From Nanobdellota archaeon (GTDB lineage: Archaea > Nanobdellota > Nanobdellia > Pacearchaeales > GW2011-AR1), in NCBI GenBank assembly GCA_038045825.1, contig JBBSXJ010000003.1, positions 75,437 to 139,436 on the forward strand: a stretch of DNA of 64,000 bases, written 5' to 3'. The position numbers were made by a program, and so were the translations under genes. Shown piece by piece: positions 7,057 to 61,784 of the stretch (position 1 is the first letter of the stretch; each line of letters starts with the position of its first letter). The notes beneath the pieces were generated by a model, which saw nothing but the letters and a program-made list of their open reading frames with translations, ran no database searches and was not told the origin of the DNA.

Positions 7057-7057
7057 A

Positions 7058-8163: not shown

Positions 8164-8164
8164 A

Positions 8165-9941: not shown

Positions 9942-9942
9942 T

Positions 9943-36075: not shown

Positions 36076-37209
36076 CTAAATTTTTAATTGGTCTTTTCCT
36101 ATTTCCATAAACATAAAACCATTGGGATTTTCTGGTCTTTTCTTAAAGCCGAAAGAGGAATAAAATTCAACAGCTACTTTGCTAGGGCATGTTCCTAATA
36201 GATATCCTTTTTTGTTTTGAATATTCTTTAGAATTATTTGCATTAATTTCCTACCTACACCCTTACCTTGAAATTCTGGTAAAACTATTGTGTCTTGGAT
36301 ATAACCATACATTCCTTGATCTCCTGACATTCTTACCATTCCTATTATTTTATTTCCAGAATATGCACAAACACAATATGGAGCTACGTCAAGAGATTTT
36401 TGAGCGCTTTCATTTGAAATCCCCCTTTCAGCGAGATTCCAGTCAACAGAGTCTCTTAATTGATTGAATTCAACTAATGTTGGTTTCTTTTCAACATACC
36501 TTATATCCATACTATCGGACGAATTACTTCGTTTTTTAAATTTATCGTTTTCTTTAGAAACAAGATTAGCTAGATATATAGCAGTTGAATATATTTCTTC
36601 TTTAGATGCGCCTCTTGACAGGTCACTTATGTGATATCCTGTGCCTAACAAAATAGGGCCTATATGTTCATAATCCCCTAGCCTTTGAACAAGTTTGTAA
36701 GAGATATTTGCAGAATTCAAATCTGGGAATATAAATGAATTATGTTTAATTGAGTTTTTTATCCCTTTTTTCAGAGCTATTTCTGGAAGAAGAGCTGCAT
36801 CTACCTGCATGCCTTTTTCATCTGTCTTAAATGAAAGGTTTGTAATTTTCAATTCAAAGATATTTCCTACTTCTTTTTGTAAAAGATCATTCAGTTCTTT
36901 CTTTTGTTCTTCAGATAATGAAATATTAACTGCTGTGTCTGCAAAAAAATACATAGAGTCATTTTTTCTTAAAACGCTATAAGAATACACTCTGTTCTTT
37001 GGTTTTATTAATTGAAATATTATCTTAAGATAATCTGATGTCGAAATATCATGGCCCCCAACAAGGCAATCTATTTCTTTTGATATCAAAGCTTTTAATG
37101 CAGATTCGACAGAATCGTAAATTATCAGTTTGAAAATATTTTCTTTTTCTATTCTTTCTTTAACATACATTATATCGCTGTTATTATCAGAGAAACCTAT
37201 TTTTATCAT
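36076..37209 (-). CDS. fusion protein: phosphate acetyl/butyryltransferase (PTA_PTB)-like domain + GNAT N-acetyltransferase
   Basis: Residues ~1-225 contain QVDAALLPEIALKKG...FIFPDLNSANISYKLVQRL...IGPILLG...ISDLSRGAS (Pta signature). Residues ~240-377 contain GNAT motif A QGKGVGRKLM. Confidence 0.7.
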   Translation of the reverse strand: MIKIGFSDNNSDIMYVKERIEKENIFKLIIYDSVESALKALISKEIDCLVGGHDISTSDYLKIIFQLIKPKNRVYSYSVLRKNDSMYFFADTAVNISLSEEQKKELNDLLQKEVGNIFELKITNLSFKTDEKGMQVDAALLPEIALKKGIKNSIKHNSFIFPDLNSANISYKLVQRLGDYEHIGPILLGTGYHISDLSRGASKEEIYSTAIYLANLVSKENDKFKKRSNSSDSMDIRYVEKKPTLVEFNQLRDSVDWNLAERGISNESAQKSLDVAPYCVCAYSGNKIIGMVRMSGDQGMYGYIQDTIVLPEFQGKGVGRKLMQIILKNIQNKKGYLLGTCPSKVAVEFYSSFGFKKRPENPNGFMFMEIGKDQLKI

Positions 37210-38309
37210 TTGTAGAATTCCTTTATTCTTTCACAAATTCCAATAATATCTTTTTCACTTAAATGTGGGCCATTTGGAAGCCAAAGACAATTATCTGCAA
37301 TATAAGATGCATTTGGAAAATCTTTGTCAGAACCTAAATGGCTGTAAGGAGGATTTCTATGTACTGCAGGCCAACAATCTCTTGCAAAAATATTATTTGT
37401 TTTTAGATAATCCACTAAAGCTTGTCTATTTTCTATATGTACATCAATCCAAAGAGGTATCTCTCCTTTTGATATATCTATCTTTGCAAAGTGTATCTGC
37501 TTTACGCTTGACAACTCTCTTTCGTATATATTTCTCTGCTCTACCAAAAGCTTTTTGCGAGAATCTATCTTTTTTAGTTGGCTAAGAACTAGCGCTGCTG
37601 CTAAGTCGCTAAATTTTAAGTTGTACCCTTCTTTTTCGTGTATGGACTCTTTGTTGCTGAATCTTCCAAAATCTCTTATTCTTCTCATAATTTCATGGTA
37701 TTTGTCATCATCTGTTGAAACAAATCCACCTTGGCCACAAGTTATTATCTTATTTGACTGAAGAGAATAACAACCAACCTCGCCAAATGTGCCTAAGAAT
37801 TTATCCCCTTCTTTTGATCCTAGAGCCCCAGCAGCATCTTCTATAATAGAAATATTCTTTTCAGATGCAATTTTCTTTATTTCATTATAATCTGGGGATC
37901 TTCCCAATATATCTACTACAATTATTGCTGTTGTCTTATTTGTTATTTTATTTTTTAGATCTTTTATACTAATAAGACCCGTTTCTTTATCTACATCTGC
38001 TAAAATTACTTTGCCTCCAGCCCATCCAACTGCGGTTGCTGAAGCGATCATAGTCATGTCAGGAACAATTACTTCAAAATCTTGAATGTTTTTTATTATT
38101 GAATCTGCTTTTATTGCCATGAAAAGAGAAGCAGTGCAATTAGCAGTCATTGTGACATGTTTAACACCAAGATATTTTTGTAATTCTTCTTCAAGTAGCT
38201 TTGTTTTTGGACCTTCATTTACATAATTATTTCTTAATACTTCTGTTACAGAATCTATATCTTCTTGGTCAAATCTTGGTTCGTTCCAATTAATTCGTTG
38301 GTTGTTCAT
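37206..38309 (-). CDS. DegT/DnrJ/EryC1/StrS-family sugar aminotransferase (perosamine-synthase-like)
   Basis: 367 aa with family-typical length and blocks; overlaps gmd by 20 nt and the Pta-GNAT gene by 4 nt. Confidence 0.85.
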   Translation of the reverse strand: MNNQRINWNEPRFDQEDIDSVTEVLRNNYVNEGPKTKLLEEELQKYLGVKHVTMTANCTASLFMAIKADSIIKNIQDFEVIVPDMTMIASATAVGWAGGKVILADVDKETGLISIKDLKNKITNKTTAIIVVDILGRSPDYNEIKKIASEKNISIIEDAAGALGSKEGDKFLGTFGEVGCYSLQSNKIITCGQGGFVSTDDDKYHEIMRRIRDFGRFSNKESIHEKEGYNLKFSDLAAALVLSQLKKIDSRKKLLVEQRNIYERELSSVKQIHFAKIDISKGEIPLWIDVHIENRQALVDYLKTNNIFARDCWPAVHRNPPYSHLGSDKDFPNASYIADNCLWLPNGPHLSEKDIIGICERIKEFYK

Positions 38310-39354
38310 CTTTCTGAGCGCTTAGTATCTTCATTCTCTCTCTAGCTTGCTCTAGTGTCAAACCTTTTTCATGAAGATCATGCTCAAGCATCATCTTCGC
38401 TAACTCTTTGAATTTTACTTTAGGTTCCCATTTTAGAATATTCTTTGCTTTTGTTGAATCTCCAAGTAATGCTGGTACTTCAGCAGGTCTCAAGTAACGA
38501 TCACTTGTTCTTACAAACTTCTTGTAATCTGTGCCCAACAAATTAAAGCATTCTTCTAGGAATTCTCTTACCGTATGAGTTTCTTCTGTAGCAATTACAA
38601 AATCATCAGGTTTATCGTGTTGTAAAATTCTCCACATTGCTTCCACATATTCTTTGGAGAATCCCCAGTCTCTTTTAGCATCCAAGTTTCCCAAAACTAT
38701 TTCATTCTTTTCTGCATTTACAATTTTAACTATATCTCCAGTTATCTTTTTAGTTACAAAATTTAGACCCCTTCTAGGAGATTCATGATTGAAAAGTATA
38801 CCGTTTGCTGCAAATAATTTGTAAGCATCTCTGTAAAGCCTTGTTAAGTGGAAAGCTCCTACTTTTGCAATACCATAAGGACTTTGAGGCTTAAAATGAG
38901 TTGTTTCATTTTGTGGGGGTGGAGTTGCTCCGAACATCTCCGAAGATGAGGCCTGATAATATTTAACCGGGTAATTCATTTGACGAATTGCTTCTAGTAA
39001 TCTTAGGGGGCCAAGTGTGTTAATATTAATTGTAGATTCTGCATTTTCAAAACTGATTCCTACATGGCTCTGCGCTCCCAAATTATATATTTCATCAGGT
39101 CTAAATTTTTCCAAAACATTTCTTAAACTTTGAGAATCTGTTAAATCTGCATAAACAACTGTGAAAGGATTATTTGGATCGTGGTCATCTGAATATTTGC
39201 TAAGTAAATGATCTATTCTTTTTGTATTTGGAGAACTTGCTCTTCTAACAATCCCCCTTACTAAATAACCTTTTTCAAGTAGAAGTTCAGCGAGATAAGA
39301 ACCGTCCTGTCCTCCAATGCCTGTAATTAAAGCAACCTTTTTTCCATCTTGCAT
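38290..39354 (-). CDS. gmd: GDP-mannose 4,6-dehydratase
   Basis: ALITGIGGQDGSYLAELLLEKGY, SPYGIAKV, NHESPRRG blocks. Confidence 0.9.
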   Translation of the reverse strand: MQDGKKVALITGIGGQDGSYLAELLLEKGYLVRGIVRRASSPNTKRIDHLLSKYSDDHDPNNPFTVVYADLTDSQSLRNVLEKFRPDEIYNLGAQSHVGISFENAESTININTLGPLRLLEAIRQMNYPVKYYQASSSEMFGATPPPQNETTHFKPQSPYGIAKVGAFHLTRLYRDAYKLFAANGILFNHESPRRGLNFVTKKITGDIVKIVNAEKNEIVLGNLDAKRDWGFSKEYVEAMWRILQHDKPDDFVIATEETHTVREFLEECFNLLGTDYKKFVRTSDRYLRPAEVPALLGDSTKAKNILKWEPKVKFKELAKMMLEHDLHEKGLTLEQARERMKILSAQKDEQPTN

Positions 39355-41152: not shown

Positions 41153-42910
41153 ATGAAAATTCTTGGATTAAGTTGTTTTTATCATGACTCGTCTGCGACA
41201 TTATTAATAGATGGAAAAATAGTTGCTGCTGCCCAAGAAGAAAGATTTACAAGGAAGAAGCATGATTCTTCTTTTCCAATTAATTCAATAAATTATTGTC
41301 TGAATAGCCAGAATCTAAAAATAGATGATATAGATTTTATTGGTTTTTATGAAAAGCCACTTATTAAATTTGAACGCGGACTATCACAACACATACAGAT
41401 GTTTCCGCATAGTTATAAAACATTTATCGCCTCATTACCTTCTTGGTTTACTGAAAAACTTAGAGTAACAAAAACAATAAAGAATAAACTGAAATACAAG
41501 AAACCAGTTCTTTTTGTTGATCATCATCTAACTCACGCTGCGTCTTTTTTATTAAGCCCTTTTAAAAGAGCAGCTATTCTAACTGTTGATGGTGTTGGTG
41601 AATGGACTACTACTGCTTATGGAATAGGAGATAAAAATAATATAAATTTAATAAAAGAAATAAAATTTCCGCATTCCTTGGGCCTTCTTTATTCAACAAT
41701 AACTGCCTACTTGGGGTTTTCTGTTAATAACTCTGAATATAAGGTAATGGGTTTGAGTCCATATGGAAATATGGATAAAGATACAAACCCTTATTATAAT
41801 AAAATCAAGCAGATTATAGATGTAAAAAAAGACGGAAGCTACAGACTGAATATGTCTTATTTTAGATATCATTGTAAGGACAGGATGCCGTCCAGAAAAT
41901 TGTGTGTACTTCTTGGCGGGCCTATAAGAAGAAAAGAATCTTCTATAGATCAAAGACACAAAGACATTGCAGCAGCTGTGCAGCTTATCGTCGAGGAAAC
42001 AATTTTTACTATATTAAATCATATACATAAAGAAACAAAGTGCGACTCGTTAGTCATATCTGGTGGAGTTGCTCTAAATAGTGTTTGCAATGGAAAAATA
42101 TTGAAAAATACGGGATTCAAGAATATCTGGGCTCAACCAGATCCAGGAGATGGTGGAACAAGCGCAGGAGTTGCTTCTTATATTTACAACACTATTCTTG
42201 GAAAGAAAAGGAACTATATTTTAAATAATGCGTACCTTGGTCCATCTTTTAGTGAAGAAAATATAAGAGAGTTTCTTAAAGAGAATAATATTTCTTATAG
42301 TGAATTTACAAATAAAGAAGAATTGATAAAAAAAACTGCTTCTCTTATATATCAAAATAAAGTGATTGGGTGGTTCCAAGAAGGCATGGAATGGGGTCCA
42401 CGTGGATTAGGTGCAAGAAGCATTTTATCAAATGCCTGCAACCCTGAAATGAAGGAGATTTTGAATACAAAAGTAAAACATCGCGAGAAATTTAGGCCGT
42501 TTGCTCCAGTAGTGTGTTATGATGATGCTCAAAAATACTTTGAATGTGATAAGCCAATACCTGACCCAACAGATTTTATGCTAATGGTATATCCAATAAA
42601 AAAGAAATGGAGAAAAAAGATACCTGCTGTAGCACATGTTGATGGAAGTGGAAGATTGCAAACCATTAAGAAAGACCAGAACCCACTTTACTATGGAGTC
42701 ATTAAAGAGTTTGGAAAACTTTCAGGAATACCTATTTTAATAAACACATCTTTTAATATAAGAGGAGAGCCAATTGTATGCACTCCAAAAGATGCTTATA
42801 GATGTATGATGGGGACTGGAATTGACTATCTTATCATAGATAGATTTTTGATTAACCGTGATGAGAACGCCAAGGATATCTGGGACAGTGAAAAATATGC
42901 AAATGACTAA
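41153..42910 (+). CDS. carbamoyltransferase (NodU/CmcH family), copy 2
   Basis: MKILGLSCFYHDSSATLLIDGKIVAAAQEERFTRKKHD, GPRGLGARSIL, HVDGSGRLQT, ILINTSFNIRGEPIV. Confidence 0.9.
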   Translation: MKILGLSCFYHDSSATLLIDGKIVAAAQEERFTRKKHDSSFPINSINYCLNSQNLKIDDIDFIGFYEKPLIKFERGLSQHIQMFPHSYKTFIASLPSWFTEKLRVTKTIKNKLKYKKPVLFVDHHLTHAASFLLSPFKRAAILTVDGVGEWTTTAYGIGDKNNINLIKEIKFPHSLGLLYSTITAYLGFSVNNSEYKVMGLSPYGNMDKDTNPYYNKIKQIIDVKKDGSYRLNMSYFRYHCKDRMPSRKLCVLLGGPIRRKESSIDQRHKDIAAAVQLIVEETIFTILNHIHKETKCDSLVISGGVALNSVCNGKILKNTGFKNIWAQPDPGDGGTSAGVASYIYNTILGKKRNYILNNAYLGPSFSEENIREFLKENNISYSEFTNKEELIKKTASLIYQNKVIGWFQEGMEWGPRGLGARSILSNACNPEMKEILNTKVKHREKFRPFAPVVCYDDAQKYFECDKPIPDPTDFMLMVYPIKKKWRKKIPAVAHVDGSGRLQTIKKDQNPLYYGVIKEFGKLSGIPILINTSFNIRGEPIVCTPKDAYRCMMGTGIDYLIIDRFLINRDENAKDIWDSEKYAND

Positions 42911-47810: not shown

Positions 47811-48491
47811 ATGGAATCTGTATTAATCACTGGCTCATCAAGAGGTCTAGGAAAGCAATTAGCATTGGTTTTCGGCTCCGCTGGATACAAAGTGATAATA
47901 CACGGTAGGGAAGAGACTGAAATAAATAAGACAAGAGATGAGCTTGAGAAATTGAATATAAACTACGATTTAGTGTTAGGGGATTTGACAAAAGGGAGTA
48001 CAATGCTTTCTCTTGAGCGCGCTGCAATTGATAACAAAATCTCTGTTTTGATAAATAACGCAGCTGTTTTATGCTCTGGCTTGGCCTTTGAAGAACTATC
48101 AGAGATGCAACAAGATGAAATATTACAGACAAATTTAATTGCACCAATTAAACTGACTGGAAGAATTTACAAGCTCTTTCTACAAAAAGGAAAGGGTAGT
48201 ATAATAAATATATCTTCATTGTCTGCTCTGGAGCCACAAAAGAAGAGAACGCTTTATTCAGCTTCTAAGTGGGGTTTACGCGGTTTTACAGATGTCTTGA
48301 GACTAGAAGCGGAAGAGCGAGGTATAACTGTAATTGGTGTTTATGCTAGCAGAATAAAGACAAGACCTGAGCATAGTTATGGTATCGAAGCAGAATATGT
48401 TGCGAAAAAAATCTATGAACATTTTGCCTCTGGAAAAAAAGATAATTTAATACTAGATGAAAGACCCCCAGAGTTCAGGAGAAAGATATGA
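47811..48491 (+). CDS. short-chain dehydrogenase/reductase (classical SDR)
   Basis: ITGSSRGLG, NNAA, YSASK motifs. Confidence 0.8.
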   Translation: MESVLITGSSRGLGKQLALVFGSAGYKVIIHGREETEINKTRDELEKLNINYDLVLGDLTKGSTMLSLERAAIDNKISVLINNAAVLCSGLAFEELSEMQQDEILQTNLIAPIKLTGRIYKLFLQKGKGSIINISSLSALEPQKKRTLYSASKWGLRGFTDVLRLEAEERGITVIGVYASRIKTRPEHSYGIEAEYVAKKIYEHFASGKKDNLILDERPPEFRRKI

Positions 48492-49495
48492 AAAAAGCCA
48501 TTATTACAGGAGTCACTGGTATGGTTGGGTCTCATTTGGCAGATTATTTGATGGCAAACACAGATTGGAAAATATATGGTTTTTGCCGCTGGAATGATCC
48601 TCTTGATAATATTGAGCATTTGTCACCTGAAATCAATAAAGGAAATAGAGTTAAGTTGGTTTATGGAGATTTGAATGATTCTGCTTCATTAGATGAATTA
48701 GTTAGATTTTCAGAGCCTGATTTTGTTTTTCATCTTGCTGCACAATCTTATCCAAAAACCAGTTTCAGCGCACCATTTGAAACATTGGAGACAAATATTA
48801 TAGGTACAGCTAGATTACTAGAGGCAATAAGAAAGTCCAAGTATGAACCTGCAATTCATGTATGTGCCTCATCTGAAGTATTTGGTAGAGTACCTAAAGA
48901 AGAATTACCTATAAATGAAAATTGCAGATTCCATCCAGCTTCTCCGTATGCTATTTCCAAAGTAGGCACTGATTTAGTAGGGAGATTTTATGCAGAGGCA
49001 TATAAAATGAAAGTAATGACTACAAGAATGTTTACCCATACTGGACCAAGAAGAGGAGACGTATTTGCCGAATCTTCATTTGCTAAACAGATAGCCATGA
49101 TAGAAAGAGAATCAATTCCTCCAATTTTATATACGGGCAACTTGGAATCACTTCGTACATGGGCTGATGTTCGAGATGCTGTAAGAGCGTATCATATGCT
49201 ACTGACAGTTAACCCTATACCTGGGGAATATTATAACATTGGTGGTGATTTTTCTTGTACTGTAAGAGATATGCTTTCACATCTTCTAAGTAAATCAACA
49301 AGGAAAGACATTAGGGTATTGACAGACCAAGAGCGCTTAAGACCTATTGATGCAGACTTGCAAGTCCCAGACACTAGAAAGTTTACAGAGCACACAGGAT
49401 GGAGACCGGAAATAAAATTTGAACAAACCATGGATGATTTGCTTGGATATTGGAGAGATAGAGTAAACTCAGGCAGACAATTCTTGAATAGATAA
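48488..49495 (+). CDS. NAD-dependent epimerase/dehydratase (GDP-mannose-4,6-dehydratase-like extended SDR)
   Basis: ITGVTGMVGSHLADYL, SPYAISKV (Y-x3-K), THTGPRRG. Confidence 0.8.
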   Translation: MKKAIITGVTGMVGSHLADYLMANTDWKIYGFCRWNDPLDNIEHLSPEINKGNRVKLVYGDLNDSASLDELVRFSEPDFVFHLAAQSYPKTSFSAPFETLETNIIGTARLLEAIRKSKYEPAIHVCASSEVFGRVPKEELPINENCRFHPASPYAISKVGTDLVGRFYAEAYKMKVMTTRMFTHTGPRRGDVFAESSFAKQIAMIERESIPPILYTGNLESLRTWADVRDAVRAYHMLLTVNPIPGEYYNIGGDFSCTVRDMLSHLLSKSTRKDIRVLTDQERLRPIDADLQVPDTRKFTEHTGWRPEIKFEQTMDDLLGYWRDRVNSGRQFLNR

Positions 49496-49509: not shown

Positions 49510-50016
49510 CTAGGAATTTTTTATCTTTTCAACGATTCTTGATGTAGAGATATTATCAAACTCTTTAGGACATGTGCGTTTAAGAACTTCAACTTGAACA
49601 TTATATTTTTTTGCTATCTCTTTTCTTAGATCTATATCAAATGCATCATCATTCATTGCCCAAATATCTGGTTTTAATGATTCAAATACTGGAAAAAGCA
49701 CGGAAAGTATGCTTCCATTATATTTACCATCTTTGGGGGGAATATCCAGCATCGTATAATCTACATACTTTAGAGAATCAACAGTCTTTAATCTTACATT
49801 CTCATTTAATATAGGTCTATTTTCTCCCTTATATTTTTTAGTAGTCTTATCATCACCAATAGAAACGAAAACAATATCTCCTAATTTCTTACAATCTTCA
49901 AAGAATAATATATGACCTGCATGCATCAAGTCAAATGTACCTGAGCAAAATACTATTTTCTCATTTTTATGCTTTTCTCTTATTTCTGGAAGTTTGGATA
50001 GATCTATTATAACCAT
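49510..50016 (-). CDS. cytidylyl/adenylyltransferase (TagD / RfaE-domain-II family)
   Basis: CSGTFDLMHAGHILFF (H-x-G-H nucleotidyltransferase motif), 168 aa. Confidence 0.7.
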   Translation of the reverse strand: MVIIDLSKLPEIREKHKNEKIVFCSGTFDLMHAGHILFFEDCKKLGDIVFVSIGDDKTTKKYKGENRPILNENVRLKTVDSLKYVDYTMLDIPPKDGKYNGSILSVLFPVFESLKPDIWAMNDDAFDIDLRKEIAKKYNVQVEVLKRTCPKEFDNISTSRIVEKIKNS

Positions 50017-50541: not shown

Positions 50542-50626
50542 CTTAAAAATCTGTCGATTAGGTGATGTTAACTTTACCGCTTACTAAATCCAAAAATATA
50601 TATAGCTTATCTAAGCCCCTTGATTG

Positions 50627-52720
50627 ATGGGAACAGATGTAAAGAAGGTAAAGCTTGTTCAGATTAATGGTGGACCAAGCGGGCAGAACTATTTACCACT
50701 TTCTGCTGCATATATGCAGACTCATGCACAAAAAAACCTTCCTTCTTCAGATAAGTTTGATTTTTCACTTCCAATTTATACAAGAATGCCTGTCGATGAT
50801 GCAGTTGAGAGATTAGTGGATGCTGATATTGCTGGATTTAGCACTTATGTATGGAATTTTAATCTTTCGGTACAAATAGCTAAAAAACTTAAACAAGCAA
50901 ACCCTGATACTTTGATTGTTTTTGGAGGACCACATGTTCCGGAGAGAAACACTTGGGAATTTTTTAAAGAACACCCTTATGTTGATGTTGCAGTTGCAGG
51001 AGAAGGAGAACTAGCTTTTACTTCCATTTTAGAAAATTATCCTGGTGTTGTTCCATCTGATGTTCCCAACATTAGAGACATTGTTGCAATTAGAAGATAT
51101 CTTCAAGAAAAAGTATTTGTCGGGGTAGATGATAAAATTGCACGGAGAAGAATTGATAAAACAATTGATAGCTTAGTTAGGTCTGGTTCGTGGGGAGAGG
51201 TATCTACTGTAAACTTCCAAAAAGATGGAGGGGTTTTTGTCCATCCAACTTCAAGAAGGATATCTGATTTAAATGAGGTACCATCGCCTTATTTGAATGG
51301 AGCGTTTAGAGATTTAATGGAGGCACACCCCGAAGAAAATTGGACAGCTATATGGGAGACAAACAGAGGATGTCCGTTCGATTGTTCTTTCTGTGATTGG
51401 GGATCAATGGCAAAAGATAAGATGGTTAAAATAGAAGATGATCGTCTTGCAGCTGAGCAGGACTGGTTTAGCCGAAACAAGATTGAAGTTGTATGGTGTG
51501 CTGATTCAAATTTTGGAATGTATGGTAAGAGAGATCTTGTTATTGCTCAAAGAATGGCAGAAAATAATAGAAAACATGGGTATCCTAAATTTTTCACTGT
51601 ACAGGGAACTAAAAATCCAAACGAAGAAGCATATCAGACTCAGAAAGTTTTAGATGAATCTGGTCTTAGCAGAGGAGTTCTAATTGCATTTCAATCTCTG
51701 CATCCACCGACACTTGAAGCAGTTCATAGAAGCAATATAAGTCTCGAGAGATTCTTTGAATTTCAAAGAAGATATGCGAAAGAGGGAGTAGACACTTTCT
51801 CAGATCTTATAATTCCGCTACCTGAGGAAACTTATGAAAGCTTTACAACAGGTATCTCTAAGTTGATTGAAAGCGGACAACATGGAAGAATTCAATTCAA
51901 CAATTTGTCTATTTTACCAAATCCTCCGATGGCTGATCCAGCTTATATTGCAAAGTATCAACTTGATATAGTTGAGACTCCTACGGTAAATATTCATGGT
52001 CCGATAAAAACTGATAATGATGATGTTCAGGAAACACAAGAATTAGTAGTTGCTACGAGCACAATGTCGAGAAAAGAATATGTTGATGCTAAATCTTTTG
52101 CTTGCATGACTTCATTGCTTCATTTTGATAAGCTATTACAGATACCATCTATCCTTGCACATAGTACTTATGGTTTAAGTTATAAACAAATTTTTGATGC
52201 ATTTAGAGCACAGAAAGGTTCTGAAAACCCTGTAATATCTGGAATTAACCGTGCATTTGAGGAAAAAGCTAGAGCTATTCAAGGTGGATCTCCTGAATTT
52301 TGCCCTTCTGAAGAATGGCTTGGAGTATATTGGTATCCTGATGAGCATGCGTTTATTGATTTAGTTGCTAATAGAAAACTAGATCAATTCTACCGAGAAG
52401 CAAGAGGACTTATGGGCAAACTTATAGGAGAGGAAATTTTAGGTGGGACTATTATGGATGATGCATTAAGACTAAACAGTCAATTGCTTAGACTGCCTAG
52501 TCCTCCGAGCTCTCTGGAAATAGAAACCGCTCATAATGTATGGGAATTGTATAAATCAATGTTAGCAAGTGATCCTGTTGAGCCTTCAAATAAAGGTTTC
52601 AAGTATAGAATCGATGTTGATGATCAATGGGGTTCTATGGATGAATGGCTAAAGAAAATGGTATGGCAACAAAACAAGAAAGGAGCTTATATTTATTCTT
52701 GTTCTCCAATTTCAGATTAG
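50627..52720 (+). CDS. B12-binding-domain radical SAM enzyme
   Basis: N-terminal cobalamin-binding-like Rossmann domain (IAGFSTYVWNFNLSV...IVFGGPHV). C-x3-C-x2-C (CPFDCSFC) is encoded at 51371-51394. The ~250-aa C-terminal extension is unassigned. Start taken as ATG 50627. Confidence 0.8.
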   Translation: MGTDVKKVKLVQINGGPSGQNYLPLSAAYMQTHAQKNLPSSDKFDFSLPIYTRMPVDDAVERLVDADIAGFSTYVWNFNLSVQIAKKLKQANPDTLIVFGGPHVPERNTWEFFKEHPYVDVAVAGEGELAFTSILENYPGVVPSDVPNIRDIVAIRRYLQEKVFVGVDDKIARRRIDKTIDSLVRSGSWGEVSTVNFQKDGGVFVHPTSRRISDLNEVPSPYLNGAFRDLMEAHPEENWTAIWETNRGCPFDCSFCDWGSMAKDKMVKIEDDRLAAEQDWFSRNKIEVVWCADSNFGMYGKRDLVIAQRMAENNRKHGYPKFFTVQGTKNPNEEAYQTQKVLDESGLSRGVLIAFQSLHPPTLEAVHRSNISLERFFEFQRRYAKEGVDTFSDLIIPLPEETYESFTTGISKLIESGQHGRIQFNNLSILPNPPMADPAYIAKYQLDIVETPTVNIHGPIKTDNDDVQETQELVVATSTMSRKEYVDAKSFACMTSLLHFDKLLQIPSILAHSTYGLSYKQIFDAFRAQKGSENPVISGINRAFEEKARAIQGGSPEFCPSEEWLGVYWYPDEHAFIDLVANRKLDQFYREARGLMGKLIGEEILGGTIMDDALRLNSQLLRLPSPPSSLEIETAHNVWELYKSMLASDPVEPSNKGFKYRIDVDDQWGSMDEWLKKMVWQQNKKGAYIYSCSPISD

Positions 52721-54782: not shown

Positions 54783-55634
54783 TTACTTGCGAGCAGGTTT
54801 ATAGTCTAACGTTGGGTCTGACTCATAAGCTGCGTATGATTCTCTAACAGGAGTTGAAAGTTTTAACGCTCTGTCTCTAGGAGCATGCATTAAAGGCTCT
54901 GGCAATCCAAGAATTTCTCCAAGTATGAACGGCGTGCAGTGAGCTGTCAAATAAGCTTTATTTATTGCTATTTCTCCATCTATTCCTTTAACTAATTGAT
55001 CTCTTGTAAGAATTCTTAATCCCCCCTCTGTTACTAATCTAAATCCTCTGTGCATCCAATGCGTAGTTCTATCCATCATGTCTTGAGGTATTTCAGAATA
55101 ATATACGCTAAAAATAGCTCCATGTGCTCTTGTTATCAATCCTTTTGAAATAGCTTCTTCTCTTTTCTTTGGAGGTAGTAAGTCTAAAACTCCGGCTTCT
55201 GTCAAACCATTTCCTACTCCTGCTAAATAATCCCTCATAGTAATCCCTTCTGTCAATAAATGAAAGTCGGCGTAAGGTCTTGCACCATCTAAAATTGCGT
55301 CTCTTATTTTATGTATTTCATCTAATGGTGCAAAAGGAGTAGTTGTATCTCTCAAGGGTTCCCCATGTGGGGCTTCATTATTGAATTCTTCTATTACTTC
55401 TCTCTCCCATGTTTCCCATGGACTAGAATCTTTAGGAATAGGATTTCCCCCAATAGTATTTGAAGACAATCTATAAGGAAGTGCAGGATAAGTAGAATCA
55501 TATCTTGTAAACATGAATTCATCTGATTCACGAGATTTTACAACTGCAACACTTGGGTGGTGGTTAACTATTTTGCTCATTCGTCTAGTCAAATAAGCTG
55601 ATTTATAATCTTTGTGCAAGGCCTGAATGAACAA
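54783..55634 (-). CDS. hypothetical protein
   Basis: 283 aa. Composition is richer in R/P/G/A/H than most of the window; no family recognised. Confidence 0.5.
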   Translation of the reverse strand: MFIQALHKDYKSAYLTRRMSKIVNHHPSVAVVKSRESDEFMFTRYDSTYPALPYRLSSNTIGGNPIPKDSSPWETWEREVIEEFNNEAPHGEPLRDTTTPFAPLDEIHKIRDAILDGARPYADFHLLTEGITMRDYLAGVGNGLTEAGVLDLLPPKKREEAISKGLITRAHGAIFSVYYSEIPQDMMDRTTHWMHRGFRLVTEGGLRILTRDQLVKGIDGEIAINKAYLTAHCTPFILGEILGLPEPLMHAPRDRALKLSTPVRESYAAYESDPTLDYKPARK

Positions 55635-55671: not shown

Positions 55672-57705
55672 ATGAAAGCAGTGATTCTAGCAGGAGGATT
55701 TGGAAAGAGATTAAGAATAGCCCTCGGGGAAACTCCAAAACCAATGGCTCCTATCGCAGGAAAGCCATTTTTAGAGCATCAGATACGCCTTTTGAAAGAG
55801 CAAGGAATAACTGAAATTGTTCTTTGTGTATATCATATGGCTGACAAAATAAAATCCTATTTTGATGACGGAAAAAAGTTAGGGGTTGAGATAACCTATT
55901 CTGATGAAGAAACTCCAATGGGAACAGGCGGGGCAATAAAGAAAGCAGAAAAATATCTCAAAAATGATACTTTCCTGGTTCTAAACGGAGATACTTATTC
56001 CCAGGTGAACATCAAAGATCTTAAGGAGTTTCATGATTCAAAAGGCGGATTAGGTACTATGTGTCTGACAAAAGCTAATAATGCTTTGGTTTCGGGAAAT
56101 GTTGTAGTAAAAGATGACAAAGTAATTTCTTTTGCCGAAAAAGAGGACATTGGTGCTGAATTAATTAACAGCGGAGTTTATATTTTTAGCCCAGACATTT
56201 TCAAGTACATCCCTGAAAATAAAAACGTCTCGCTAGAAAGAGAAACTTTTGTTCAATTAACTAATCAGAAACTTTTGAATGGCTACCAATATAAAGGATA
56301 TTTTATAGATATTGGCCTTCCCGAAACTTATTATCAATTCAAGAACGACGTTTTGAATCTGTTATATATTGGAGCAAGGGTTAGTTTGAGAGAAGTTATG
56401 CAAAAAATGGAACTTTTAGGCATTCCCGTTCTGCTCGTAGTTGATGAACAAAAAAAACTTCTTGGGACCATTACAGAAAAAGACATAAAAAAAATGATCA
56501 TAACTGGTAGGGATATTAATCTAGACGTTGGTAATGTCATGAACAAGGAGCCAATAACAGCAAAAATGGTTGCAACAAAAGAACATTTTGCAACTTTGTT
56601 TGAGCTAGGAGCAGACCATATCCCTGTGATTGACGAAGATGGTGTTGTAAAAGATTTAATATTTTATATCGAAGAGCTAAAAGAAAAACAATATCCTGTT
56701 GTTAGGGGAATGGCTCCTCTAAGAATAAGCTTCTCCGGTGGTGGTACAGATTTGCCTTATTTTTTTGATAAGTATGGCGGGGCAGTAATAAATTCAACAA
56801 TTGACAAATACTGCTATGCAACTATTGTCAAGAGAGCTGATAAGAAATTAATTATAGACTCTGACCTGACTCCTGAGAGAGATGTCGTAGTAAAATCTAT
56901 TAATGAACTAAATTATGATGGTAATCTTGATTTGATAAAGGCAGTTATAAAATTAATGAAGCCAGAATTCGGTTTTGAACTTTATTTACATAATGATATT
57001 CCTCCTGGAAGAGGATTAGGATCTTCTGCTAGCTTCGCAGTTTTAGTTTGTAGCCTTCTAAATCACTTACAAGAGACAAATTATGATGTTTACAAACTTG
57101 CTGAAATAGCTTACAAAGCGGAAAGGGAAGAACTAAAGATAAAGGGAGGTTGGCAGGACCAATATGCAGCACTGACTGGAGGATTTAGCTTTATGGAATT
57201 CAATGGAGAGAAGAATATAATTTATCCATTAAGACTTAAGGAAGATATTATTAATGAACTAAATAATAGGACTCTCCTATGTTATGTTGGAAAACATCAT
57301 TCTTCTGGAGAGGCACATTCAAAACAAGAAGAATCTTTCAAGAAAAATGAGGATGAGTCTGTAAGAATTTTGCAGACCATGAAAAGAATAGCTATAGATA
57401 TGAAAGATGCTTTGCTGACCAACAAACTAGATACATTTGGGAAATTACTTCATGAAAGCTGGGAATATAAGAAACTGCTCTCTCCAAATATTTCAAATGA
57501 ATTTGTAAATAAATTATATCAGGTAGGTTTAGATAACGGAGCTGACGGAGGTAAATTACTAGGTGCTGGAGATGGAGGATACCTTTTATTTTATTATAAT
57601 CCTAAAAAGAGAAATCAATTAGTTAGAGAACTTAAAAGATCTGGAGGGGAGATCATGGACTTTAACTTTGACTTTTCAGGTACTAAAGTATGGGCAGTCA
57701 AATAA
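55672..57705 (+). CDS. trifunctional-architecture protein: sugar-1-phosphate nucleotidyltransferase (HddC-like) + CBS pair + GHMP sugar kinase (HddA-like)
   Basis: ILAGGFGKRLR (NTP-transferase) at the N-terminus. Two CBS repeats lie at about residues 235-335. The C-terminal half has APLRISFSGGGTDLPYFFDKYGGAVINSTIDKYCY and PPGRGLGSSASFAVL (GHMP motif). Confidence 0.75.
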   Translation: MKAVILAGGFGKRLRIALGETPKPMAPIAGKPFLEHQIRLLKEQGITEIVLCVYHMADKIKSYFDDGKKLGVEITYSDEETPMGTGGAIKKAEKYLKNDTFLVLNGDTYSQVNIKDLKEFHDSKGGLGTMCLTKANNALVSGNVVVKDDKVISFAEKEDIGAELINSGVYIFSPDIFKYIPENKNVSLERETFVQLTNQKLLNGYQYKGYFIDIGLPETYYQFKNDVLNLLYIGARVSLREVMQKMELLGIPVLLVVDEQKKLLGTITEKDIKKMIITGRDINLDVGNVMNKEPITAKMVATKEHFATLFELGADHIPVIDEDGVVKDLIFYIEELKEKQYPVVRGMAPLRISFSGGGTDLPYFFDKYGGAVINSTIDKYCYATIVKRADKKLIIDSDLTPERDVVVKSINELNYDGNLDLIKAVIKLMKPEFGFELYLHNDIPPGRGLGSSASFAVLVCSLLNHLQETNYDVYKLAEIAYKAEREELKIKGGWQDQYAALTGGFSFMEFNGEKNIIYPLRLKEDIINELNNRTLLCYVGKHHSSGEAHSKQEESFKKNEDESVRILQTMKRIAIDMKDALLTNKLDTFGKLLHESWEYKKLLSPNISNEFVNKLYQVGLDNGADGGKLLGAGDGGYLLFYYNPKKRNQLVRELKRSGGEIMDFNFDFSGTKVWAVK

Positions 57706-57765
57706 ACTGAGCGATCATCACAGCGATGAATAAATTTATAAACTGCATCCAAAGATTTTGTTATT

Positions 57766-58701
57766 ATGAATTTAGATGGGCGCATTTATATTGCAGGGAA
57801 TACTGGATTGGTTGGATCTGCTTTGGAAAGAACTTTGCACAGAGAAGGTTATAAAAATGTAATTGGTACAAGCTCAAAGGATTTTGATTTGCGTGATTTT
57901 CAAGCTACGAATGATTTCTTTTTAAGTAGTTCTCCTGAATATGTTTTTTTTGTAGCTGCGCGCGTTGGTGGCATTAAAGCAAATATGACTTATCCCGCTG
58001 AATTCATATTTGACAATCTGCAGATGCAGAATAATGTCATACATACTGCGATGAGGCATAAAGTAAAGAAATTAATGTTTTTTGGAAGTAATTGTATGTA
58101 TCCTCGCGAATGCGAGCAACCTATGAGAGAAGACAGCCTTCTTACAGGAATTCTTGAACCAACAAACCAAGCATATGCTCTAGCGAAACTTGCTGGGATG
58201 GAGATGTGCAAAGCATATAGAAAACAGCATGGAGCAGATTTCATAACTGTGATTCCTGCAAATTTATATGGACCACAGGATACTTATAATCAAGAGCGGT
58301 CGCACTTCATACCTGCTTTGCTTGAACGATTTGATTTGGCAAGACTAAATAGTTCACCAAATGTGGTTATGTGGGGCACTGGGACACCAAGAAGAGATGT
58401 CTTATATGTTGATGATTTGGCAGAAGCGTGCTTATTGTTAATGAAAGATTATAGTGGTGAAAGACCAATTAATGTGGGAACAGGGAGAGACCATAGCATA
58501 CTAGAAGTAGCAGAAACAATCAAAGATGTAGTTGGTTTCAGGGGAAAGATATTATTTGATGCAAGCAAACCTGATGGAATGCCACGTAAAATGCTTGATG
58601 CCTCGCGTCTGCAACAGTTAGGATGGCAGGCCAAAACAGAATTGCGTGATGGACTTGCCTTGACTTACGAATCTTTTTTGAAAGGTAAAATTCGCACATA
58701 A
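57766..58701 (+). CDS. fcl: GDP-L-fucose synthase-like epimerase/reductase
   Basis: IYIAGNTGLVGSAL, YALAKLAGMEMCKAY (Y-x3-K), typical 311-aa length. Confidence 0.85.
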   Translation: MNLDGRIYIAGNTGLVGSALERTLHREGYKNVIGTSSKDFDLRDFQATNDFFLSSSPEYVFFVAARVGGIKANMTYPAEFIFDNLQMQNNVIHTAMRHKVKKLMFFGSNCMYPRECEQPMREDSLLTGILEPTNQAYALAKLAGMEMCKAYRKQHGADFITVIPANLYGPQDTYNQERSHFIPALLERFDLARLNSSPNVVMWGTGTPRRDVLYVDDLAEACLLLMKDYSGERPINVGTGRDHSILEVAETIKDVVGFRGKILFDASKPDGMPRKMLDASRLQQLGWQAKTELRDGLALTYESFLKGKIRT

Positions 58702-58713
58702 ATTAGTTTAAAC

Positions 58714-59286
58714 TTAAAGATTAAGAGCTACCAACTCTTTCTCCACAATTTCACACATTATGTGCATTATAAGAGTATGGCTCTCCTGAATCCTAGGGGT
58801 ATCTCTTGAGTCGACTATAATTGATAAGTCGCATAACTTTCCCAAATGTCCGCCATTATTCCCTAAAAATCCTATAGAGACCATTTTTTTCTTTTTAGCA
58901 AATTCCACTGCTTTTATTACATTTTTTGAATTTCCCGAGGTGCTTATGCCAATTAATATATCTCCCTCTTTCCCATGAGCCTCCACTTGTTTAGAAAATA
59001 TTTCATCAAAACTATAGTCATTTCCTATTGCAGTTATTGTAGATGTATCTGTTGTTAAAGCAATACAAGGCCAAGGATTTCTTTCTATCTTGAACCTGTT
59101 TAAAAATTCACCAGACATATGTTGTGCATCTGCAGCACTACCCCCATTACCACACACAAGTATCTTTCCGCCTTTTTTATAACATCTTATAATTGTTTCA
59201 ATTAGTTTTTGAATATCTTGGATTGGCAGATTTTCTTTAACTTTAATCGACTCTATTATTAAATCTTTTATTTTTTCTGAATACAT
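58714..59286 (-). CDS. gmhA: phosphoheptose (sedoheptulose-7-phosphate) isomerase, SIS domain
   Basis: ILVCGNGGSAADAQHMSGEFLNRF and ISTSGNS blocks. Confidence 0.85.
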   Translation of the reverse strand: MYSEKIKDLIIESIKVKENLPIQDIQKLIETIIRCYKKGGKILVCGNGGSAADAQHMSGEFLNRFKIERNPWPCIALTTDTSTITAIGNDYSFDEIFSKQVEAHGKEGDILIGISTSGNSKNVIKAVEFAKKKKMVSIGFLGNNGGHLGKLCDLSIIVDSRDTPRIQESHTLIMHIMCEIVEKELVALNL

Positions 59287-59314: not shown

Positions 59315-59869
59315 TTATTTTTGAGTTGAATTAGGATATTGGTGATGAAGATTTCCTAATTCTATAAGAAGAGTTGGTCTGCTACTATCTAAGGCACTCT
59401 TATATGCAGGAACGATTTGTTCTGCCATTTCCAATCTTATTATATCTATATTGGTTAAGAGACTTCTGAATGCTGTGTAGTGATCTTGTGAATGCTGTGG
59501 TCCTGGGTCTATTGGCTGAGTGCCTCCAACAATCGTTCTGATTATTACTTTAGGTTTAAACTGCCCTCTGGACATCATCTCAACTTTATCTAGGTGGTTA
59601 ACTAATTGATCTGTTGCAAGAGGTAGAAAATCAAATCTTGGATAAATAGAAACAGGAATATATCCTCTTAAGGCTAATCCTGTAGAGATTCCCATTTGTA
59701 AATCTTCAATTATCGGGAGCTCTACTCTTTTTTCAAGAGGTACATCTTTTAGAGTAGAAGTTGTATACCTGCTACCTCCAAAAACTACTGTTTGACCAAG
59801 AAATAAAGTTCTTTCGTCTTTTGCAAGCAAATCCATTGCTTGTTTAAGTGCCTCAACATATGGATTCAT
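59315..59869 (-). CDS. TPP-enzyme E1 beta-like (pyrimidine-binding domain only)
   Basis: 185 aa from ATG 59869 (the track's 60001 start overlaps the upstream gene). LPIIEDLQMGISTGLALRGYIPV; lacks the usual C-terminal domain. Confidence 0.7.
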   Translation of the reverse strand: MNPYVEALKQAMDLLAKDERTLFLGQTVVFGGSRYTTSTLKDVPLEKRVELPIIEDLQMGISTGLALRGYIPVSIYPRFDFLPLATDQLVNHLDKVEMMSRGQFKPKVIIRTIVGGTQPIDPGPQHSQDHYTAFRSLLTNIDIIRLEMAEQIVPAYKSALDSSRPTLLIELGNLHHQYPNSTQK

Positions 59870-59870
59870 G

Positions 59871-60602
59871 TTAAAACCCTGCCTCCTTTCCTGCTCCTTG
59901 ATGTTTGAAAGAATTTTTATAAGCATAATAAATTGTGTTAGGTAGAAGTTGAGGAATTCTATTTTTATCCATTCCCCAAACCTCTCTTGTAGGAGTATCA
60001 ACGCTCATTCCATTATCTTCTATTACAAAAATAATTGGGAGCTCGTGATTGGATGCATAATTAGTAGCTTCATGAAATGCTCCTGTTTGCGCAGCCATAT
60101 CTCCGCAGAAAGCCCAAACATGTCCTTTAGAGCCAGATAATTTATAAGCCATTGCCAAACCTACTGCTGGTTTTAGATGCCCTGGAACTATAGCTGAAGA
60201 GAAAACTCCATACTCCTTATCCATTGGATACATGCTTCTTCCTTCAATAATATCCTGCCTTACTCTTTCTTGAGGCATTCCTTTTAGAAGAATATGAGCA
60301 TGATTTCTATAAGAAACAAAAATAAAGTCTTCTTTTTTTATTCCTTTGAGATAATCTGCATCCTGATTATCTTCTGGAACAACCACTAATTTTGCATCTA
60401 ATACTTCCTGGCGTGTTAAGGGAGGAAGCTGTTTAATATATTCTCCTTCTCTAAGACCCCTAAATATCTTGATTATTTGTTCTTCATTTCCTTTTGCGAA
60501 ATGAACGGGTCCATTAATTTCTCCTCTTGACCAAAGTGCAGCAAGTTCATCTTCAAATTCCATTAAAGATTTTGACGTTCCTGCAATATTTTCTAAGTTC
60601 AT
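59871..60602 (-). CDS. TPP-enzyme E1 alpha-like (pyrophosphate-binding domain)
   Basis: CGDMAAQTGAFHEATNYASNHELPIIFVIEDNG matches the GD-x(24-27)-N TPP-binding motif. At 243 aa it is shorter than canonical E1 alpha. Confidence 0.7.
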   Translation of the reverse strand: MNLENIAGTSKSLMEFEDELAALWSRGEINGPVHFAKGNEEQIIKIFRGLREGEYIKQLPPLTRQEVLDAKLVVVPEDNQDADYLKGIKKEDFIFVSYRNHAHILLKGMPQERVRQDIIEGRSMYPMDKEYGVFSSAIVPGHLKPAVGLAMAYKLSGSKGHVWAFCGDMAAQTGAFHEATNYASNHELPIIFVIEDNGMSVDTPTREVWGMDKNRIPQLLPNTIYYAYKNSFKHQGAGKEAGF

Positions 60603-60659: not shown

Positions 60660-61784
60660 TTAAGTCTTAAAAAAATCATGTAGTGCTTCTGAAGCATAAT
60701 CTAAATTATCTTTTGTAAGTTTTTGATGTATTCCAAAGTGAACACCTTTATCACCCACATATTCTGCTTCTGGGAAATCTCCTAATCTATGACCTATGAA
60801 AGCAAAAGCTCCTTGTTGCGTAGGCATGCTTCTGAAATTAACTTTGGATTTTATTCCTCTTTCTTCAAGAAAAACATAAAGATCTTTTGCGCCTCTTCTA
60901 TCTCCTTCCTTTAATGTTACACTGAATGCATGAGGACAAATATCTTCGCCTTTTTCTTCATTATTAAAGTAAGCTCTATCTTGAAGGTCTTTTGTTTGAC
61001 CCAATAGATAAACTAAGTTGTCTTTTCTAGTCCTATAAACTCTCCAGAAATCGTCCAATTGGTCTAATCCTATTGTTGCGGCCATATCAGTCATTTTTGC
61101 ATTGACGCCTAACCTTTCGTGGTCAAAATATACAGTCCCAGGTTTTCTTCCGTGAGTTTTTACAGACCTTAGCACATGAGCCATTTGGTCATCTTTTGTA
61201 GAAACCATTCCACCCTCTCCTGCAAAAACTAAATGAGCTGCATAGAAACTAAATGCTGCTGCATCTCCCCATAGACCGATATGTCTTCCTTGATACTTAG
61301 CACCGTGAGCTTCACAGGCATCCTCAATTACTTTAAGATTATGGGCTCTTGCAATATCTGTAATTACATCCATTTTTGCTGGTTTGCCCATTGTATGGAC
61401 TGGCATAATTGCTCTTGTTCTTGATGTAATTGCTTGTTCTATCTTTGTTTCATCAATATTAAGAGTATCTCTTTTTATGTCTATAAAAACTGGATTTAGC
61501 CCTGCTGCAAGAACAGCTTCTCCTACCGCTGCAAAGGCTAATGCAGGAACTATAACTTCATCTCCCCTTTTAGCGCCAAAATCATATAAAGACATGCAAG
61601 CTATTGTATCTGCTGCTGTTCCTGAAGGAGTAGCTATACTATGGGGATAACCAAATAAATCCCCCCATCTTTCTTCAAATTTCTTAACTCTAGAACCTTC
61701 AGTTATTCTGTTTGATTTTAATAACTCGACCATAGAATCTATCGTTCTTGAAGGAATCTCAGGATCGCCAAATTCTATATTCAT
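60660..61784 (-). CDS. DegT/DnrJ/EryC1/StrS-family sugar aminotransferase, second copy
   Basis: 374 aa; ITEGSRVKKFEERWGDLFG...ATPSGTAAD and later blocks typical of the family. Confidence 0.85.
   Translation of the reverse strand: MNIEFGDPEIPSRTIDSMVELLKSNRITEGSRVKKFEERWGDLFGYPHSIATPSGTAADTIACMSLYDFGAKRGDEVIVPALAFAAVGEAVLAAGLNPVFIDIKRDTLNIDETKIEQAITSRTRAIMPVHTMGKPAKMDVITDIARAHNLKVIEDACEAHGAKYQGRHIGLWGDAAAFSFYAAHLVFAGEGGMVSTKDDQMAHVLRSVKTHGRKPGTVYFDHERLGVNAKMTDMAATIGLDQLDDFWRVYRTRKDNLVYLLGQTKDLQDRAYFNNEEKGEDICPHAFSVTLKEGDRRGAKDLYVFLEERGIKSKVNFRSMPTQQGAFAFIGHRLGDFPEAEYVGDKGVHFGIHQKLTKDNLDYASEALHDFFKT

Follow-up and report, generated by a model that had tools for sequence, protein, structure and literature searches.

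The stretch of DNA analyzed in this study (the window; 64,000 nucleotides, positions 75,437 to 139,436 of the forward strand of contig JBBSXJ010000003.1, assembly GCA_038045825.1) comes from a Nanobdellota archaeon, a DPANN-type host with AglB-type glycosylation, whose assembly comprises 836,590 b in 16 contigs and is 89.6% complete. The window encodes a 677-aa fusion protein in which a sugar-1-phosphate nucleotidyltransferase, a pair of CBS domains and a GHMP kinase are joined in one polypeptide, next to the genes for GmhA, a sedoheptulose-7-phosphate isomerase, and for an Fcl-like reductase. The fusion lies in a surface-glycan island of approximately 45 kb, which is internal to a 188,701-b contig and extends from an STT3/AglB gene (23032-25743) as far as a family 2 glycosyltransferase gene just beyond the window end. 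The fusion probably serves a GDP-heptose route that feeds a deoxy-heptose branch, and no ortholog of the phosphatase GmhB was found in the assembly. An earlier note on this DNA had proposed such a route; the fusion, the identity of the kinase, the GDP-heptose reading and the absence of GmhB all withstood analysis, and several of its other points required correction.

Architecture of the fusion protein

The three open reading frames described earlier, encoding the fusion, the Fcl-like protein and GmhA, were recovered with the quoted motifs in their translations, and NCBIfam matches identified the gmhA and Fcl-like genes as the neighbors of the fusion (Table 1). The three-module composition was confirmed both by Pfam and by an AlphaFold2 (AF2) model. 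In the kinase half, Pfam recognized GHMP_kinases_N (residues 421-504, 72 bits) and GHMP_kinases_C (residues 577-657). When residues 225-345 were scanned alone, two CBS stretches were detected, the second of which scored 23.8 bits by itself (E 5.6e-5). The AF2 model, built on 28 homologs (pLDDT 87.4, pTM 0.79), contains two beta-alpha-beta-beta-alpha CBS units (residues 239-331) between two well-folded catalytic domains. A fold search with the whole model confirmed the domain identities but retrieved no solved structure that combines the three domains in this way.

Identity of the kinase half

The HddA family (NF049969) was the best NCBIfam family for the kinase half, with 274.1 bits over residues 343-676 and the full length of the 338-position model, whereas the fucokinase/Fkp, mevalonate kinase and galactokinase models gave 104, 82 and 65 bits, respectively. 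The best solved relatives by sequence were heptose kinases, namely 4n3o (237 bits), 3k85 and WcbL (4usk/4usm, 197-200 bits). In a Foldseek search, ranks 1-5 were occupied by WcbL, the Campylobacter jejuni enzyme 4n3o and the Bacteroides thetaiotaomicron enzyme 3k85 (TM-score by target, 0.82-0.90), with WcbL as the top match (0.88-0.90).

The WcbL study (PMC4691232) describes R13 and D163 as key catalytic residues, reports mutants of D22, S118-120 and Q162, and ties position 162 to the room needed for the extra carbon of the heptose. In the fusion, R13, D22, S118-120, Q162 and D163 of WcbL align with R351, D360, the serines of the GLGSSAS motif, Q495 and D496. R351, D360, S451, S452, Q495 and D496 were invariant across the 28 homologs; the only one of these WcbL positions that was not invariant is S120, which is Ala in the window protein.

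A maximum-likelihood tree of 109 kinase domains was computed by a quick method under LG+G4, and its outgroup was not cleanly monophyletic. In this tree the DPANN fusions formed one clade (SH-aLRT 96), sister (80) to bacterial CBS-kinases (94), and both CBS clades were separate from the free-standing HddA genes that accompany GmhB and GmhA in Actinomycetota. The window kinase nested within the DPANN fusion clade, which contains GmhB-linked members. By family score, tree, solved relatives and fold, the kinase half was thus grouped with HddA/WcbL when placed among the GHMP kinases, in agreement with the resemblance to HddA seen earlier. On the sequence and model evidence, its place is among these heptose kinases rather than with fucokinase or any other GHMP kinase, and heptose 7-phosphate kinase activity is predicted from this homology together with the linkage to GmhA, GmhB and DmhA.

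The transferase half and the CBS pair

The transferase half is less diagnostic than the kinase half. It scored 180.2 bits on the NCBIfam model of mannose-1-phosphate guanylyltransferase (cut-off 440) and 166.2 bits on that of HddC (NF049965, cut-off 300), and MurU, archaeal GlmU-type and cytidylyltransferase models also matched it with 115-144 bits. Among solved chains, Leishmania GDP-mannose pyrophosphorylase gave 131 bits and the Yersinia HddC structures 5xhw/6jq8 gave 122 bits, the latter with a TM-score by target of 0.88-0.89. No second transferase of family PF00483 was found in the assembly, and no second GHMP kinase was found there by phmmer.

The CBS pair travels with the kinase and not with the transferase. 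In the bacterial form, found in Leptospira, Pseudomonas, SAR86 and Bradyrhizobium loci, a nucleotidyltransferase (NTase) of approximately 235 aa and a CBS-kinase of approximately 455-462 aa are encoded by two adjacent genes, often in the order GmhB-NTase-CBS-kinase-X-GmhA (Leptospira, SAR86 and others). This two-gene form and the kinase tree together indicate that the CBS pair is tied to the kinase and that the transferase became fused to them within the archaeal lineage. The CBS pair is dispensable in some relatives (L077, G272; G denotes genomes of the phylum survey, L fetched loci and C the contig number within a genome). In evolutionary terms it is part of the kinase, which it probably regulates.

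The fusion occurs widely in metagenomes, where its full-length homologs formed more than 120 clusters at 51-74% identity, with metagenome-assembled genomes of Nanoarchaeota, Pacearchaeota and Woesearchaeota as named sources. A metagenome scan yielded 7 loci, too few for statistics. Of 400 genomes sampled evenly from the phylum, only G022 and G285 carried the full form among the matches listed, so the fusion is patchy, as glycan genes usually are. Other fusions of heptose genes also occur in the phylum, including a GmhA-kinase of 551-568 aa (L083:9137-10792, G157), a GmhA-GmhB fusion in a 411-aa frame (G403:C17:8411-9313; G315:C37) and an independent NTase-kinase fusion of 596 aa without CBS domains (L082:14542-16332) in G272, a member of the window's own family. 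At the G022 locus (L010 / L085), a formyltransferase-NeuB fusion (8010-10004) lies just upstream of the fusion, and a radical-SAM/DegT fusion (5705-7930) and a CMP-sugar-type cytidylyltransferase (3403-4128) lie nearby, an arrangement that may connect the heptose module with nonulosonic-acid-like chemistry.

Evidence for GDP-heptose chemistry in the island

The GDP-heptose reading of the earlier note gained strength from a DmhA-type dehydratase encoded in the island, which matched the GDP-heptose 4,6-dehydratase 7us5 with 353.8 bits versus at most 148 bits for GDP-mannose 4,6-dehydratase chains, and which reached only 177 bits on the TIGR01472 gmd model (cut-off 415). Homologs of this gene adjoin the kinase or the fusion in L007, L008, L006, L082, L083, L084, L089 and L092. 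Moreover, the DegT-family protein of 60660-61784 has the residues 'aaHlv' where perosamine synthetase 3bn1 has 'gnKii', and it is predicted to be a ColD/E1-type C3-dehydratase rather than an aminotransferase. The Fcl-like protein scored 329 bits against E. coli GDP-fucose synthetase and 244-277 bits against the C. jejuni chains named 'GDP-L-fucose synthase'. The presence of an Fcl-like gene beside the fusion, as reported earlier, is accurate, but fucose is not required to explain it, since the C4-reductase/epimerase of deoxy-heptose pathways fits equally well.

GmhA scored just below the cut-off of its family, and its gene is the last of a minus-strand run; in L089, the ortholog (365 bits) is convergent to the fusion. 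Orthologous fusions were 47-58% identical to the window protein, and GmhA was found nearby in L010, L087 and L089.

Search for GmhB

A six-frame search of the assembly found no GmhB, the best scores being 14.3 bits for TIGR00213 and 22.4 bits for TIGR01656, on which DPANN GmhBs score 101-187 and 105-139 bits. A local hidden Markov model (HMM) built from 22 GmhBs of the fetched loci gave at best 25.6 bits in the assembly, compared with 160-256 bits for true members, and the flanks of the island on its 188,701-b contig contained no GmhB. The absence previously noted for the cassette thus extends to the whole available assembly.

The lack of GmhB is not a property of the fusion. GmhB is the immediate neighbor of orthologous fusions in L007, L008, L015, L092 and L090; it lies 5.3 kb away in L010 and at other sites in the genomes of L004, L005 and L009, in the last of which it is fused to GmhA. 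GmhB was not found in G402 (L006) or G405 (L014). In total, a GmhB-type gene was present in 8 of the 11 fusion-bearing genomes or contigs examined. Nor is the heptose pathway rare in this archaeal phylum, since GmhA-like genes occurred in 101 and GmhB-type genes in 94 of 401 genomes.

The kinase survey covered the best 150 of 343 matches, which correspond to 46 genomes with a kinase-domain match, the window's genome included; all its figures were counted by hand from the listings. A GmhB-type gene was defined as a TIGR01656 match above the cut-off and its absence as no match at E <= 1e-12, and GmhA was called at E <= 1e-25. Because related genomes are not independent, the figures are counts and not statistics. 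GmhB-type genes were present in 37 of the 46 genomes, one further genome (G095) lay just below the cut-off with 81.9 bits, and 8 had none (G000, G272, G157, G029, G038, G085, G375 and G302), half of which belong to the window's own family. GmhA was present in 39 of the 46, and 34 of these also carried GmhB; the remaining five, with kinase and GmhA but no GmhB-type gene, were G000, G272, G157, G029 and G302, among which G157 and G029 are listed as approximately 100% complete. In the window's family, GmhB-type genes occurred in only 2 of 27 sampled genomes, and none was present in G272, which alone among the other genomes of that family had both kinase and GmhA in the survey. The GmhB gap is therefore real as far as the assembly goes, and it recurs in a minority of relatives.

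Candidate phosphatases

Two generic haloacid dehalogenase (HAD) phosphatases elsewhere in the genome matched weakly in the GmhB searches and are candidates for the 7-phosphatase (Table 1). The only phosphatase-family gene seen in the island is the His_Phos_1 gene beside AglB, a weak candidate by virtue of its location. As a GmhB replacement it found no support, because homologs occurred in 3 of 5 GmhB-less and in 3 of 5 GmhB-positive genomes, and no His_Phos_1 homolog was found near the fusion in approximately 90 fetched loci.

The protein divergently transcribed from the fusion (54783-55634) was also considered as a hidden phosphatase or GmhB substitute and was ruled out as a divergent Nudix-like protein. 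It had no Pfam or NCBIfam match; its Atlas features and structure placed it with NUDIX clusters (score 0.93; TM-score by target up to 0.83), and the alignment of its family contains a conserved Nudix-box-like motif, GGN..SP.E...RE..EEF. On this ground it is more likely a nucleoside diphosphate (NDP)-sugar hydrolase than a 7-phosphatase, a role known from Gmm/WcaH of colanic-acid clusters. Homologs were seen at L015:359-1153, at L007:18920-19606 and, in three copies, in L006 (7996-8721, 19054-19854 and 20915-21616). In the G272 cluster, an IMPase-family gene (L082:11721-12608) was dismissed as a replacement for GmhB; it is grouped with ATP sulfurylase and sulfotransferase genes, scores 66 bits for HisN and 57 bits for CysQ, both far below the cut-offs, and is probably a CysQ-type 3'-phosphoadenosine 5'-phosphate (PAP) phosphatase. 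In G157, a Cof-type HAD gene adjoins the GmhA-kinase gene, and a HAD-IA gene lies two genes beyond.

Neighboring genes of the glycan island

The features of the locus are collected in Table 1. In addition to the genes above, the island contains a flippase gene.

Table 1. Features of the fusion protein, the surrounding glycan island and the candidate phosphatases (positions refer to the window unless a contig is given; scores in bits)
Feature	Position	Strand	Properties
Histidine-phosphatase-superfamily protein (P0125), beside AglB	22388-22972	+	Pfam His_Phos_1 133; alpha-ribazole phosphatase 93 (cut-off 163)
Carbamoyltransferase gene	33917-35653	+	Carbam_trans_N/C
PTA/GNAT acetyltransferase fusion, beside Gmd	36076-37209	-	
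DegT aminotransferase, beside Gmd	37206-38309	-	
Canonical GDP-mannose 4,6-dehydratase (Gmd)	38290-39354	-	TIGR01472 435, above cut-off of 415
Carbamoyltransferase gene	41153-42910	+	Carbam_trans_N/C
DmhA-type GDP-D-glycero-D-manno-heptose 4,6-dehydratase (predicted)	48488-49495	+	PDB 7us5 353.8
Small cytidylyltransferase-like protein	49510-50016	-	Best model rfaE domain II (heptose 1-phosphate adenylyltransferase) 83 (cut-off 181.5)
B12-binding radical S-adenosylmethionine (SAM) enzyme, KedN5-type C-methyltransferase-like	50624-52720	+	NF033712 227 (cut-off 700); orthologs in L004, L009, L092
Double short-chain dehydrogenase/reductase (SDR) fusion, 655 aa	52793-54760	+	Pfam Epimerase, two stretches; two epimerase/reductase-type halves
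Pfam-less protein, 283 aa (P0124; Atlas record starts at residue 19)	54783-55634	-	Divergent Nudix-like; divergently transcribed from the fusion
Fusion protein, 677 aa	55672-57705	+	NTP-transferase, CBS pair, GHMP kinase
N-terminal sugar-1-phosphate nucleotidyltransferase domain, HddC/ManC-like	55672-56355	+	Residues 1-228; Pfam NTP_transferase residues 2-227, 116
CBS pair	56359-56691	+	Residues ~230-340; two CBS stretches, 48.6
C-terminal GHMP kinase domain, HddA/WcbL type	56698-57705	+	Residues 343-677 plus stop; HddA NF049969 274
Fcl-like SDR, GDP-4-keto-6-deoxy sugar epimerase/reductase type (P0002), 311 aa	57766-58701	+	NF047922 424 (cut-off 500)
GmhA, sedoheptulose-7-phosphate isomerase (P0003), 190 aa	58714-59286	-	TIGR00441 206.9 (207.1 in the genome search; cut-off 209.45); PRK13936 219
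Short thiamine diphosphate (ThDP)-enzyme pair: E1-beta-like 59315-60001, E1-alpha-like 59871-60602	59315-60602	-	Pfam E1_dh / DXP_synthase_N, Transket_pyr; true start of E1-beta-like gene probably later
DegT-family enzyme, His at the pyridoxal-phosphate (PLP)-lysine position	60660-61784	-	Aligned to perosamine synthetase 3bn1; NCBIfam best RfbH 226
HxpB/beta-PGM-like HAD-IA	C4:158587-159249		Generic HAD; weak match in GmhB searches; candidate 7-phosphatase
PpaX-like HAD	C5:61287-61982		Generic HAD; weak match in GmhB searches; candidate 7-phosphatase

The halves of the double SDR protein are separate genes of approximately 316-336 aa in L004, L006, L008 and L009. The short E1 pair immediately precedes GmhA on the upstream side, and similar pairs adjoin the fusion at L087:16407-17538, L088:12342-13594 and L092:3106-4321. 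Its members (approximately 200-243 and 176-228 aa) are far shorter than both the 303-332-aa pairs of L006, L007 and L015 and pyruvate dehydrogenase E1. The equally short pairs of L087, L088 and L092 rule out truncated pseudogenes. The pair may form sedoheptulose 7-phosphate as a minimal enzyme of the transketolase kind, or it may attach a two-carbon branch to a keto-sugar.

The trio of Gmd, DegT and acetyltransferase genes (36076-39354) resembles a GDP-N-acetylperosamine-type module. Homologs of the small cytidylyltransferase-like protein were seen at L006:16356-16841 and 21648-22034, L007:18355-18873, L087:13628-14128 and L088:17694-18224. The two carbamoyltransferase genes, with a homolog at L006:5148-6911, suggest carbamoylated sugars.

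Discussion

The explanation favored here, held with moderate confidence, is a GDP-heptose route through the fusion, whose steps are all deduced from homology and gene context. The HddA/WcbL-type kinase of the fusion would phosphorylate O1 to give the alpha-1,7-bisphosphate, a phosphatase, which is not a GmhB ortholog encoded in this assembly, would take off the 7-phosphate, and the HddC-type N-terminal domain would join heptose 1-phosphate with GTP. The product would then enter the deoxy-heptose branch of the island through the DmhA-type 4,6-dehydratase, the His-type C3-dehydratase, and the Fcl-like and other SDR epimerases/reductases, possibly followed by radical-SAM methylation or ThDP-dependent branching, and the final sugar would be used in AglB-dependent surface glycosylation. 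In C. jejuni (PMC10440746), GDP-3,6-dideoxy-heptoses are made by a 4,6-dehydratase, a PLP-dependent C3-dehydratase, an epimerase and a C4-reductase, and the predicted enzyme set of the island fits this route. Because the island adds the B12-radical-SAM gene, the double SDR, the ThDP pair and the flippase, the end product is probably a further modified deoxy-heptose.

Several observations weigh against this explanation. The kinase half reaches 274.1 of the 600 bits required for HddA and the transferase half 166 of the 300 bits required for HddC, with the mannose-1-phosphate guanylyltransferase model slightly higher, and the fusion is accordingly treated as an analog of HddA and HddC in function rather than as a curated member of either family. 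Neither a transketolase N-domain nor a transaldolase was found in the assembly to supply sedoheptulose 7-phosphate. Three fusion-bearing genomes, G401, G402 and G407 (completeness unknown), showed no GmhA, no phosphatase candidate is supported beyond its presence, and a tenth of the genome is missing from the assembly.

The leading, if tentative, account of the missing step is a non-orthologous phosphatase acting on the 7-phosphate. It is ranked above a gap in the assembly because of the counts of the GmhB survey and because, according to a published study (PMC9302095), GmhB is only partly required in Escherichia coli and Klebsiella pneumoniae, which was attributed to an uncharacterised redundant enzyme. 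An ordinary four-enzyme pathway, with a normal GmhB gene in the unassembled tenth of the genome and the fusion as its only unusual feature, would accord with the incomplete assembly of 16 contigs and with the GmhB-type genes of most kinase-bearing and most fusion-bearing relatives. We consider it rather unlikely, since GmhB, when present, usually adjoins the fusion, and here the island is internal to its contig with flanks that lack the gene; furthermore, the scarcity of GmhB-type genes in the window's family, G272 included, and their absence from the practically complete genomes G157 and G029 point away from an accident of assembly.

No phosphatase would be needed if the fusion were a salvage enzyme, as in Bacteroides Fkp, because the sugar would carry no 7-phosphate; the kinase would then act on O1 of such a sugar (free mannose or host heptose), the transferase would make the GDP-sugar directly, and the fusion might be the sole source of GDP-mannose. 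Apart from the fusion, neither a PF00483 transferase nor a GHMP kinase was found in the assembly, no phosphoglucomutase/phosphomannomutase (PGM/PMM) domain was found there, and the transferase half of the fusion scores best on the mannose-1-phosphate guanylyltransferase model. The canonical Gmd, encoded with its DegT and acetyltransferase partners, requires GDP-mannose; the supply genes may lie in the unassembled tenth, or host sugar phosphates may be used with the fusion serving mannose. D-mannose also binds the sugar pocket of WcbL (PMC4691232), and the lack of transketolase and transaldolase would accord with salvage. Nevertheless, salvage as the function of the fusion seems quite improbable. 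A near-cut-off GmhA, whose only known product is heptose 7-phosphate, is encoded 1 kb away, orthologous fusions are physically linked to GmhB, the glutamine tied in WcbL to the room for the extra carbon of heptose (PMC4691232) is retained as Q495, a dedicated GDP-heptose dehydratase is present, and ManB/ManC could sit in the missing part of the genome. GmhA, Q495, the dehydratase and the GmhB linkage of the orthologs all point to heptose 7-phosphate as the principal substrate. It is also conceivable, though unlikely, that every GDP-sugar of this reduced genome is made through the fusion without GmhB, either because its kinase takes host sugars lacking a 7-phosphate (mannose, heptose) or because an unrelated phosphatase, for which the His_Phos_1 protein of the island is one candidate, substitutes. 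If this were true, a GmhB-independent heptose route would exist in a subset of DPANN archaea, represented by G000, G272, G157, G029 and G302.

There is very little likelihood that the transferase half uses a nucleotide other than GTP, or another sugar 1-phosphate, so that the product is not GDP-heptose. The sub-cut-off scores of both halves, the MurU, GlmU-type and cytidylyltransferase matches of the N-domain and the separate rfaE-domain-II-like transferase of the island (49510-50016) would allow it; however, among solved proteins the N-domain is closest to enzymes of GDP-mannose and GDP-heptose, its Fcl-like and Gmd-like partners act on GDP-sugars, and the dehydratase of the next stage matches 7us5, a GDP-heptose enzyme, with 354 bits. 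The GDP-heptose route through the fusion remains the preferred explanation.

Compared with the known bacterial GDP-heptose pathway, the same families of isomerase, kinase, transferase, 4,6-dehydratase, His-type C3-dehydratase and Fcl-like reductase are encoded here, and the catalytic residues of WcbL are conserved; in contrast, kinase and transferase form one polypeptide with a CBS pair, no GmhB was found, and the host is of the DPANN type. The bacterial NTase and CBS-kinase gene pair has the same domains, order and CBS-kinase junction, forms the sister clade in the kinase tree and often occurs with GmhB and GmhA, but it consists of two separate, often overlapping genes of 31-43% identity to the fusion. 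The bifunctional enzyme HldE (RfaE) has folds unrelated to those of the fusion, namely a PfkB kinase and a cytidylyltransferase-type domain, and its kinase and nucleotidyltransferase steps are non-adjacent, with GmhB acting between them. Unlike the fusion, HldE uses an adenine nucleotide to give an ADP-sugar, acts on the beta anomer and has no CBS module. It is similar in that it covers two steps of a four-step route, that of ADP-heptose (PMC4691232).

Bacteroides Fkp shares an N-terminal pyrophosphorylase and a C-terminal GHMP anomeric kinase with the fusion, and the kinase parts are related (104 bits; TM-score by target of 0.78 with 9iip). The view that the fusion mirrors Fkp holds for this domain order but not beyond it, since the Fkp model (PRK13412; 103.7 bits, cut-off 721) aligns only with residues 434-640 and not with the N-domain, and the whole chains superpose poorly (root-mean-square deviation of 28). 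Moreover, Fkp salvages a free sugar and needs neither isomerase nor phosphatase.

In the literature searched, no study was found of the fusion, of the bacterial CBS-kinase or of heptose synthesis in DPANN archaea, and DPANN papers mention heptose in passing; a search combining GHMP kinase, CBS domain, nucleotidyltransferase and heptose found only the Fkp structure paper. The fusion is a real, conserved and unstudied variant, of modest extent, of a known bacterial pathway.

In conclusion, heptose surface glycans have been well studied in bacterial pathogens and hardly in archaea. The fusion would offer a compact handle for making GDP-heptose in vitro and a test case for the gating of nucleotide-sugar flux by CBS domains. 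The absence of transketolase, transaldolase, PMM and a second nucleotidyltransferase from the genes found in the assembly bears on the reliance of these symbionts on host sugar phosphates. The GmhB gap recalls the activity, redundant with GmhB, that was postulated for E. coli and Klebsiella (PMC9302095), and a replacement phosphatase could be easier to find in a minimal genome than in a large one.

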